This document shows, piece by piece, positions 7,418 to 8,227 of a DNA stretch of 31,980 bases. Below the pieces are notes generated by a model. That model did no database searches and was not told the DNA's origin. It saw only the letters and a program-made list of their open reading frames with translations. This stretch comes from a virus (taxonomy: Duplodnaviria > Heunggongvirae > Uroviricota > Caudoviricetes): the IMG/VR virus record IMGVR_UViG_2778261537_000006. One strand, written 5' to 3'. The first letter of the stretch is position 1. Each line of letters opens with the position of its first letter. A program made the translations under genes and the position numbers.

Positions 7418-8227
7418 ATGCAAGAAGAGAAACAACACTACCTCTACGTTCTGGTGCCAGAGAACGGAGATACTTTTAAAATCGGCATTTCATGTGGTCC
7501 ATTGGCACGGTTTAAAGGACTACAAGTGAGTCCCGATTTTGCGCTTTCACGGGTCTATCGTGGTACGCGTTTGGCAATGGTTAATCTTGAGCGGGCTTTA
7601 CACGCAACCTTTTTCCCCTGGAATGCGCCGTGGGAGAAAAGCGTCGGTGGCGGGCATACTGAATGGTTTACACGAGAGTGTCTTGATAAGGTTTTGGCTC
7701 ATATCGAATATCTAAATGATATGTGGGGAGGGATTCTCGAGCGCATTAAGTCGAATGATTTACTTCAGCGTCCAGTAGATGCTGCTTGCTCTTTCGAAAA
7801 AGAGCTGGATGTTACTTCTATCGTGACTTTCAAAGATGACGCAGGAATGAGGGACGTGGCTTATGTCTCCATATCTGGCTATGAACCGGACGCGATCCGC
7901 GCTCAATGTGAATTGCTGAAAGCAATGTTTATGCTTCGGACTAAATATCCCTGGGATACAGGGCGGGTGTGCTTCCCTATGGAAGAGTTAACCGCCACCA
8001 TTGATTCCCAGCTTTACCACGATAATCCAGAGAAGTTTTTTAGCCTTTTAGCCGGTAATGGGCTTAACTGTGTGTCCGGGCTGGGGCGAAGTAGAATCCA
8101 ACATGCCTCGCTCTTCGGTCCCTTCTTTTACGATCGACACGGGTACTTTGAGGCTGAACTTCCGGCGCTTACGCGTGCTATAGATACTATCGATTTCGAA
8201 CGATTATTCGCTGCTCTTAGCAAATAA
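7418..8227 (+). CDS. T5orf172/GIY-YIG-like domain protein with uncharacterised C-terminal domain
   Basis: N-terminal 90 aa carry the T5orf172-type signature (YLYVLVPENGDTFKIGIS ... LERALHATF ... GGGHTEWFT). Starts 36 bp after the last iteron and ends at a strong terminator. Confidence 0.6.
   Translation: MQEEKQHYLYVLVPENGDTFKIGISCGPLARFKGLQVSPDFALSRVYRGTRLAMVNLERALHATFFPWNAPWEKSVGGGHTEWFTRECLDKVLAHIEYLNDMWGGILERIKSNDLLQRPVDAACSFEKELDVTSIVTFKDDAGMRDVAYVSISGYEPDAIRAQCELLKAMFMLRTKYPWDTGRVCFPMEELTATIDSQLYHDNPEKFFSLLAGNGLNCVSGLGRSRIQHASLFGPFFYDRHGYFEAELPALTRAIDTIDFERLFAALSK

Follow-up and report, generated by a model that had tools for sequence, protein, structure and literature searches.

What is a nuclease-like gene doing between the copy-control iterons and the partition operon of a P1-like phage-plasmid? 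The gene is an open reading frame of 269 aa with an ATG start codon (called the ORF below), found in a stretch of viral DNA of 31,980 nucleotides (IMG/VR record IMGVR_UViG_2778261537_000006), which we analysed as a whole and refer to as the window. Resistance genes in E. coli and Salmonella are widely carried by P1-like phage-plasmids, whose two replicon types, IncY and p0111, are used in typing. Among 55 P1-like phage-plasmids, 24 were reported to be p0111 and 31 to be IncY (PMC9603915). A gene wedged into the maintenance region of such an element could be a part of the maintenance machinery, a piece of passing cargo, or something that belongs to this particular site.

The ORF and its surroundings

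The ORF is a genuine gene under selection, not a reading frame open by chance, since 45 intact and ungapped copies give a pN/pS of 0.31 and its homologues of 25-44% identity keep both its length and its position. The databases name it 'GIY-YIG nuclease family protein'. Residues 8-85 of the product match the Pfam family T5orf172 (PF10544, GIY-YIG clan) with 26.9 bits against a cutoff of 20 (E = 6.9e-6), and the GIY-YIG-type fold with the conserved Tyr, Arg and Glu is present, so the N-terminal domain proposed in the initial annotation is borne out. The full-length product matches PHROG 2876, a family whose function is not known, at 1e-194, and a PHROG endonuclease family at 7e-9. No NCBIfam model was matched, and the sequence search against PDB gave a marginal GIY-YIG match at best. 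The C-terminal ~165 aa have zero Pfam matches, to DNA-binding domains or to any others, in all four of the full-length lineages described below, in keeping with the earlier remark that this part carries no recognisable motif. In particular, no CapR, DUF723 or DUF4397 zinc-finger domain is matched in Pfam by the ORF product, and a CxxC motif is also absent. The GC content of the ORF (0.473) equals that of the window (0.471), which rules out a foreign composition. The features of the region are collected in Table 1.

Table 1. Features around the ORF, in window coordinates
Feature	Position	Strand	Basis or detail
Exchangeable p0111-type replicon cassette, substituting for the P1 IncY oriR iterons, repA and incA	6044..8293	+	blastn against P1
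Origin (incC-like) iteron array, five TTGACTATACGCGA-type repeats in a 21-bp phase	6059..6164	+	Repeat search
repA, p0111-type Rep3-family initiator	6241..7125	+	Pfam Rep3_C and Rep3_N
incA-like iteron array	7126..7387	mixed	+ at 7126 and 7150; - at 7245, 7307, 7339 and 7369
Weak promoter-like candidate TTCACA-18-CAACAT, 8/12 matches, overlapping the last iteron	7356..7385	+	Relaxed scan
ORF, T5orf172/GIY-YIG nuclease-like protein	7418..8227	+	Pfam, PHROG 2876, pN/pS of 45 copies
N-terminal nuclease domain (aa 1-105)	7418..7732	+	G23, R31, E58, E82, Y10, K21 and H62 retained
Linker (aa ~106-127, low confidence) and acidic C-terminal domain (aa ~128-269), predicted to be winged-helix-like	7733..8224	+	
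Intrinsic terminator of the ORF, GCCCCTGAACGGGGC followed by a T-run (T6)	8235..8255	+	Starts 8 nt past the stop codon
Ppar, promoter of the par operon and start of the conserved P1 backbone	8313..8341	+	Homology to annotated P1

The repeat search found six incA-like iterons with TCGCGCATAGTCAAC / TTGACTATAxGCGA as their core. For repA, an in-frame start exists as far upstream as 6205. The last iteron ends at 7383-7387 and the ATG of the ORF follows ~30-35 bp further on; the adjacency reported in the initial annotation stands, while its distance of 36 bp has to be shortened slightly. The ORF has its own terminator ahead of the par promoter, as had been claimed. The hairpin has a predicted energy of -11.9 kcal/mol with z = -2.9 against shuffled sequences, and the consensus scan reads Ppar as TGTACA-17-TATTAT. 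A homologous terminator and flank lie downstream of the ORF copy of locus L079, and the copy of locus L004 is followed by a different hairpin.

We scanned the DNA upstream of the ATG for promoters and found no sigma-70 site at 9 of 12 consensus matches. The relaxed scan gave the candidate in Table 1, whose -10 element falls within the last iteron; similar weak sites were found in L004 and L079 and none in L078. Read-through from PrepA is equally possible, as the scan predicts no terminator in the interval from repA to the ORF. The transcript may hence come from PrepA, with read-through across incA, or from a weak promoter on the last iteron, and either candidate route would couple the ORF to RepA occupancy, a coupling that the initial annotation had already suggested. 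Expression is probably low, as the Shine-Dalgarno sequence is weak.

One junction and an exchangeable replicon cassette

Homology between the window and P1 (blastn) is limited to 3544-6043 and 8294-14700. The first segment corresponds to P1 upfC to upfA followed by the DnaA box and Dam sites of oriR, and the second to Ppar, parA, parB, gene 23 and beyond. Between the breakpoints 6043|6044 and 8293|8294, 2250 bp of the window (6044-8293) stand in for 1491 bp of P1, and the right breakpoint is 67 bp past the stop codon of the ORF. The RepA of the window is 42% identical to P1 RepA and 84-85% identical to the RepAs of L004 and L005. Twelve P1-like phage records, SJ46, RCS47, JL22 and phi456 among them, share 6100-10700 with the window at ~99%, whereas canonical P1 matches this region only from ~8294 onward. 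The annotated P1 indeed has no gene at the iteron-par junction, as stated in the initial annotation. The view of the ORF as cargo in a conserved backbone is right in that the gene is separable and dispensable (L078 compared with L060 and P1, and an IS-disrupted copy in L038), but wrong in picturing a lone insertion, because the whole replicon block is swapped relative to P1; a simple insertion into the P1 backbone is thereby ruled out.

The ORF is closely tied to one type of replicon. In PLSDB it occurs in 401 records and the p0111-type repA in 399, a linkage of ~1:1. Among 70 IMG/VR loci retrieved through ParA, the ORF is present in all of the ~44 with p0111-type RepA and in none of the ~23 with P1's own RepA, and the junction is empty in L060 and L061, two further replicon variants. 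The ORF is therefore not a conserved core component of all P1-like genomes; a core P1 maintenance gene would be universal and required, and the ORF is neither.

Relatives of the ORF were collected from much larger protein sets. A word-indexed search of 5.8 billion proteins returned near-identical copies and one homologue of 44% identity (P0004). A HMMER scan of 1.84 billion cluster representatives gave 154 matches at E <= 1e-3, of which only P0004, P0009 and P0011 are full-length relatives, the rest sharing the nuclease domain alone. No further homologue was found by tblastn in the plasmids and phages of PLSDB and INPHARED, and GTDB, with one genome per species, contains a single Escherichia locus. 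With the ORF included there are four full-length lineages, 25-44% identical to each other and alike in length and position: P0004, P0009 and P0011 each lie between repA/iterons and parA of a P1-like element, the loci being L004, L077/L078 on a 93-kb Salmonella contig, and L079. The family is endemic to this one site, the gap from the incA iterons to the par promoter.

At least three RepA specificity types are paired with the ORF family. L078 has a P1/IncY-type RepA and an ORF only 27% identical to that of the window, and in L079 an ORF 40% identical to that of L078 goes with yet another RepA type, which is ~45% identical to all the others. Among the loci examined, the repA-parA junction is occupied by this protein family or is empty. 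We rejected a general cargo hotspot at the junction, given that this family is its sole occupant and that other replicon types are empty there.

Table 2. Protein identities between pairs of loci
Pair	RepA	ORF	ParA	ParB	gp23
Window and L004	84%	44%	89%	67%	81%
L078 and P1	83%	absent from P1	89%	68%	80%
L004 and L078	41%	29%	100%	98%	99%

L004 and L078 have the same backbone with a different RepA and a different ORF (Table 2); the cassette is therefore exchanged as a unit, and the ORF family goes with it. The left breakpoints of this swap lie just ahead of the origin iterons and the right ones 84 and 63 bp past the ORF stop codons, mirroring the swap between the window and P1. In both of these independent swaps the right end is thus 63-84 bp beyond the ORF, which always lies just inside the right-hand breakpoint of the swapped replicon cassette.

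The presence or absence of the ORF can also be compared between similar replicons. L078, which has the ORF, and L060 and P1, which lack it, have RepAs of 83-90% identity, and the boundaries are precise; against L060 (RepA 90%), the ORF block of ~960 bp extends from the last incA iteron to ~95 bp before the parA start. A second comparison sets the window and L004 against L005 (CP042620.1), a different phage-plasmid with a RepA 85% identical to that of the window and the same iterons, with neither the ORF nor an adjacent par operon. The replicon core therefore works without the ORF. No direct repeats were found at the presence/absence boundaries, and tblastn detected no recognisable remnant of the ORF in the empty junctions. 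We accordingly rejected the 172-bp spacer of P1 and the other empty junctions as decayed copies, their tblastn signals being noise only. The polymorphism thus lies at a homologous site free of transposon hallmarks, as is looked for in a homing gene.

A single site, diverged alleles, clean presence/absence and exchange breakpoints argue for a biology tied to the locus and against portable cargo or a portable defence gene. Homing endonuclease genes (HEGs) with a T5orf172 domain are known from recombination boundaries beside essential genes, and one locus can be shared by HEGs that have diverged to ~30% identity (PMC10448857). Since the properties of the ORF match those of such HEGs, we tentatively favour the explanation that it encodes a free-standing T5orf172 homing-endonuclease-like nuclease acting between related P1-like genomes. 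When two such genomes meet in one cell, the nuclease would cut the ORF-less genome at or near the junction. The cut genome would then be lost, or recombinational repair would copy the ORF along with the non-homologous replicon block beside it. In this way the ORF would favour the inheritance of both itself and the replicon linked to it, and would define a boundary of genetic exchange.

Several points weigh against homing. The domain order is reversed compared with phage T5orf172 HEGs, and the CapR/DUF723 zinc fingers are missing. Every p0111-type P1-like locus examined is occupied, so that no empty target allele of this replicon type is known in a P1 backbone. The pN/pS of the ORF points to a retained function, whereas a fixed homing gene is expected to decay. 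Finally, the co-inheritance with repA could be simple physical linkage.

Selection, the C-terminal domain and the wider subfamily

The ORF is under purifying but relaxed selection. The pN/pS values of its neighbours are 0.02 (repA), 0.004 (parA) and 0.05 (parB), and the two halves of the ORF are alike (0.30 for the N-terminal and 0.28 for the C-terminal half). Between the lineages, the N-domain is 34-63% and the C-domain 7-32% identical. In IMG/VR, 45 of the 46 copies are intact and ungapped. The disrupted copies include that of L038, into which an IS200/IS605 element (tnpA and tnpB) has inserted with a 229-bp deletion, that of L003, and one phage record in which the ORF is split; ~10 of the 401 PLSDB records cover <80% of the gene. 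From the pN/pS, the divergence and the disrupted copies, the ORF appears to be functional but accessory and fast-evolving. It is dispensable for plasmid maintenance: P1 and others lack it, the IS-disrupted copy persists, and it is 6-70 times less constrained than its neighbours, all of which argues against a required maintenance factor. The truncated PLSDB records and the disruptions in L003 and L038 are what a decaying remnant without present function would leave behind. We regard such a remnant as highly improbable because of the selection signal carried by the intact copies, and length and architecture are conserved down to 25-44% identity.

The C-domain was approached by structure prediction. 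An AlphaFold model from a two-sequence alignment reached a pLDDT of only 50 and was discarded as too poor. With all four lineages, the mean pLDDT was 71.6 (69.6-71.6 over five models); most of the C-domain scored 70-87, and the modelled linker residues 116-126 are of low confidence. The structures nearest to the modelled C-domain are WH1 domains of plasmid initiators, with a weak match, and then ORC/Cdc6 and other winged helices. Foldseek against PDB returned nothing at E <= 1e-3 for the C-domain; its best match was a Rep WH1 domain (E 0.19, probability 0.69), followed by RepE54 chains. The BFVD matches involve the nuclease head only and lead to T5orf172, HEG and CapR-homology phage proteins. 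The model thus weakly suggests that the C-domain is winged-helix-like, with initiator WH1 domains as its nearest solved relatives.

The composition of the C-domain points in another direction. It is acidic in all four lineages, with a pI of 5.06-5.24 and a net charge of -4 to -8, compared with a pI of 9.3 for RepA, and the putative recognition helix PEKFFSLL contains zero basic residues. A domain that binds DNA by reading its sequence would not be expected to have such a chemistry, and a role in protein contact or regulation would be at least as likely. These properties (pI ~5.1 and a helix devoid of basic residues) count against homing as well, the weakest point of which is that no DNA-binding module is evident. 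No sequence homologue of the C-domain was found outside the four lineages.

A regulatory role could be that of a domesticated, non-cutting accessory of the replicon or the partition system, which would modulate RepA handcuffing at incA, copy number or Ppar in the manner of CapR. CapR is a repressor derived from a HEG. The position between incA and Ppar is fixed in four lineages, the gene is inherited together with repA and could be co-transcribed with it, no terminator lying between them, and a WH1-like fold could mediate a contact with RepA. We nevertheless consider a domesticated accessory improbable, as every invariant residue of the nuclease domain is retained, P1, L060 and L005 replicate and partition without the ORF, a copy disrupted by an IS persists, and the ORF diverges far faster than RepA, ParA and ParB.

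The 123 nearest relatives of the N-domain, 117 of which match PF10544, place the nuclease in a wider subfamily. G23, R31, E58 and E82 are invariant in these 123 relatives, and Y10, K21, H62, G79, T81 and F84 are conserved in at least 90%; all of these residues are retained in the four P1-like lineages. Many relatives are 260-300 aa long with an N-terminal nuclease, and their tails are highly diverse (46 singletons and many small clusters). Rep3_N (4 members) and Rep3_C (2 members) are the most frequent additional Pfam domains among the relatives. In P0046 and P0112 the nuclease is joined to a middle region and an entire Rep3 WH1+WH2 module. Small metagenomic contigs carry Rep genes that stand alone and share 71-87% identity with the Rep3 part of P0112, which mirrors for Rep3 plasmids the relationship between the phage nuclease Odn and the RepA of PLE (described in PMC8263062 and PMC10448857). 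P0062, P0096 and P0131 (260-280 aa) match only the middle region of P0112, so the Rep module of P0112 is an addition to a 'nuclease plus tail' protein. No locus of P0046 or P0112 was found in IMG/VR or in the first metagenome scan, and a local HMM built from P1-family RepAs failed to detect the Rep3 modules of the fused relatives.

These fusions bear on the most interesting rival of homing, namely that the ORF is a replicon-directed competition nuclease similar to Odn, aimed at the origin or the iteron-RepA complexes of rival replicons, be they of other P1-like types or of other iteron plasmids. Targeting would rely on a diverged Rep-WH1-like C-domain that either binds DNA or docks onto the WH1 domain of RepA. 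Selection would favour a tight linkage of the nuclease to its own replicon, which is immune, and the nuclease would be the force behind the diversification of replicon types (IncY, p0111 and others) on a shared P1 backbone. We judge this rather unlikely. The capture of a RepA domain as in Odn was rejected at the sequence level: hhalign of the C-domain against six P1-family RepAs gave a probability of 0.2% and no sequence similarity, and against the Rep3-fused P0046 and P0112 the nuclease domain alone aligned, not the Rep3 parts. The structural scores are modest, with a pLDDT of about 72 and the Foldseek search blank at its threshold. True Rep modules in the relatives have a pI of 8.8-9.9, unlike the acidic C-domain. 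The C-domains of the window and L004 are no more than 32% identical, although the two share iterons and their RepAs are 84% identical. P0112 carries its Rep3 module on top of a ~150-aa tail, so that such tails need not be what does the targeting.

In a more definite form, the ORF would be a weapon of plasmid against plasmid: the replicon-linked nuclease would recognise the replication complexes of rival P1-family elements through its diverged, initiator-WH1-like domain and destroy or convert them. Recognition would possibly proceed by docking onto iteron-bound RepA and not by reading DNA. This form seems to us quite unlikely. If true, it would explain why alternative cassettes (IncY, p0111 and others) are found on near-identical backbones with identical partition systems, and the nuclease would drive replicon diversification as Odn does for the PLE replicons.

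The subfamily as a whole is not replicon-associated. The neighbourhoods of six distant relatives, found on longer contigs, are phage early regions, a toxin-antitoxin island and housekeeping loci, and none of the six has rep or par genes beside it, which rules out such an association for the entire T5orf172 subfamily. The broad subfamily behaves like free-standing mobile nuclease genes, and only the P1-like family and a small number of fusion proteins show the replicon linkage.

The diversity of the tails also raises the possibility that the ORF is an anti-phage or exclusion effector carried as lysogenic-conversion cargo, in which the C-domain would sense a component of an invading phage or plasmid and release the nuclease to protect the host or prophage. 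A nuclease head on a highly variable tail, a fast-evolving, accessory and dispensable gene, and the one distant relative within a toxin-antitoxin gene island would all suit this, and an acidic tail that does not bind DNA would make a plausible sensor or regulatory domain. The link to anti-phage defence suggested in the initial annotation did not hold up in PADLOC-DB v2: none of the 5027 models matched the ORF product at E <= 1, and with NCBIfam also lacking a model, the ORF is ruled out as a known defence system. Moreover, defence hotspots usually rotate unrelated systems whereas this junction holds this family or nothing, the family is absent elsewhere, unlike what is predicted for a portable defence gene, and there is no partner gene. 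We thus find a role in defence unlikely.

Significance and comparison with known systems

The p0111 replicon always travels with the nuclease gene, and related nucleases are found in the same spot with other replicons. If the nuclease promotes cassette exchange or removes rivals, this would account for the exchange of replicon types while the phage backbone stays constant. The ORF is small, dispensable and part of the best-studied plasmid-prophage system, which makes these hypotheses directly testable. The co-replacement of the ORF with repA has already been noted in the literature, and we found no functional study of the ORF there. Several points appear to be new: that a family of four lineages is endemic to the junction, that it is paired with several RepA types and that it lies at recurrent breakpoints of the cassette, as well as the way it is selected and the architecture of an N-terminal nuclease joined to an acidic, winged-helix-like tail.

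I-TevI and the Seg proteins of T4 are classical GIY-YIG homing endonucleases, encoded by free-standing genes between conserved genes. They are 245-290 aa long, with a catalytic N-terminal domain of ~100 aa, a flexible linker and a C-terminal domain, and they cause marker exclusion of the flanking DNA. The ORF has the same layout of catalytic domain, linker and C-terminal domain. In contrast to it, I-TevI and the Seg proteins are basic, carry a zinc finger, a minor-groove helix and an HTH, and belong to the classical GIY-YIG family and not to T5orf172; no sequence similarity of the ORF to them was detected beyond the superfamily fold. SLX1 (6seh, 7cq2, 7wme) is more remote: it is a repair enzyme of eukaryotes that contains a RING domain and has SLX4 as its partner, and at an identity of only 11-19% the likeness is one of shared fold, not of shared family.

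Odn of ICP1 resembles the ORF in that a T5orf172 nuclease is joined to a domain structurally closest to the DNA-binding domains of initiators, and in that both are tied to the modular swapping of Rep and origin cassettes (PMC8263062). The C-domain of the ORF differs in having no sequence similarity to Rep, only a weak fold likeness to Rep3-type WH1, and an acidic character. Moreover, the ORF adjoins its own replicon and is not carried by a predator of that replicon.

The free-standing HEGs of the gp165/gp174 type in ICP1 are likewise single genes with a T5orf172 domain in a gap beside essential genes; they share with the ORF the location at an exchange boundary, alleles of ~30-40% identity at one locus and presence/absence polymorphism (PMC10448857). 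CapR, DUF723 or DUF4397 domains are found in 87% of phage T5orf172 HEGs of this type (PMC10448857), whereas the ORF has neither these zinc fingers nor a CxxC motif and ends in an acidic tail. The nuclease domain is C-terminal in the ICP1 proteins and N-terminal in the ORF. The ORF also differs in residing in the plasmid-maintenance region of a temperate phage-plasmid and in that its homing is putative. If our reading of the ORF as a homing-endonuclease-like gene is correct, it would extend the principle that nucleases mark the boundaries of genetic exchange from lytic phages to plasmid-maintenance modules.

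Junction of the nuclease gene in related replicons

The iterons of the window also occur without the nuclease gene. Plasmid pNCYU-26-73-5 (CP042620.1) is a phage-plasmid of 93.6 kb that is not syntenic with P1 in this part. It carries a p0111-like RepA with 85% amino acid identity to that of the window and the same iterons, and in the region 3955-5700 the nuclease gene is absent and parAB are not adjacent. The 11-nt sequence GTATTGATATG, which in the window precedes and includes the start of the T5orf172 ORF, is kept 3' of these iterons and is directly followed by TAA. A further candidate iteron in the window, TGTTGACTATAAGCGA (6843-6858), lies inside the repA coding sequence and is 94% identical to the reference iteron.

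On the 3' side, the ORF terminator and ~45 bp downstream (window 8228-8300) are recognisably homologous to positions 5996-6070 of L079, a P1-like locus with a diverged lineage of the ORF. Identity is nevertheless just 29% between the ORFs of the window and L079, and just 57% between their ParA proteins. This 3' flank is better conserved than the ORF itself. In another P1-like locus (IMGVR_UViG_2645727563_000002, L038:3489-5832), the ORF is interrupted by an IS200/IS605-type element encoding a 141-aa Y1 transposase and a 389-aa TnpB-like protein, and a 229-bp deletion accompanies the insertion.

Other blocks that differ from P1

Besides the replicon block, our comparison of the window with P1 gives four blocks of difference, listed in the table below together with the genes of a metagenomic contig, L083. 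All four coincide with variable regions given in PMC9603915.

Features of the non-P1 blocks of the window and of contig L083
Feature	Position	Strand
Non-P1 segment within dmt methyltransferase	1137-1722	
Block in place of P1 rlfA/rlfB/pmgF	16198-17387	
208-aa ORF in this block	16297-16923	
108-aa membrane-like ORF in this block	17106-17432	minus
Block in place of P1 simB/simC	21060-22101	
ORF of this block, signal-peptide-like N-terminus	20893-21567	
Second ORF of this block, signal-peptide-like N-terminus	21619-22095	
Variable end of tail-fibre gene S	31606-31980	
Stand-alone T5orf172 gene, 244 aa	L083:1299-2033	minus
Rep3-family genes, three	L083:2847-3644, 4083-5108, 5801-7042	

T5orf172 nucleases and Rep3 modules

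The stand-alone T5orf172 protein of L083, a 7-kb contig, belongs to the subfamily of the ORF, and the contig adds one more instance of a T5orf172 nuclease head adjoining iteron-type replication genes.

Also within this subfamily, the T5orf172 proteins P0046 and P0112 (considered together with loci L080-L087) each include the DNA-binding module of a Rep3 initiator in full (WH1+WH2). The Rep3 module of P0112 shares 71-87% identity with free-standing Rep genes carried by small plasmid-like contigs from metagenomes. No description of such nuclease-Rep3 proteins was found in the literature searched. Both look like Rep3-type counterparts of Odn, the origin-directed nuclease of ICP1, in which a T5orf172 nuclease is joined to an initiator-like DNA-binding domain.
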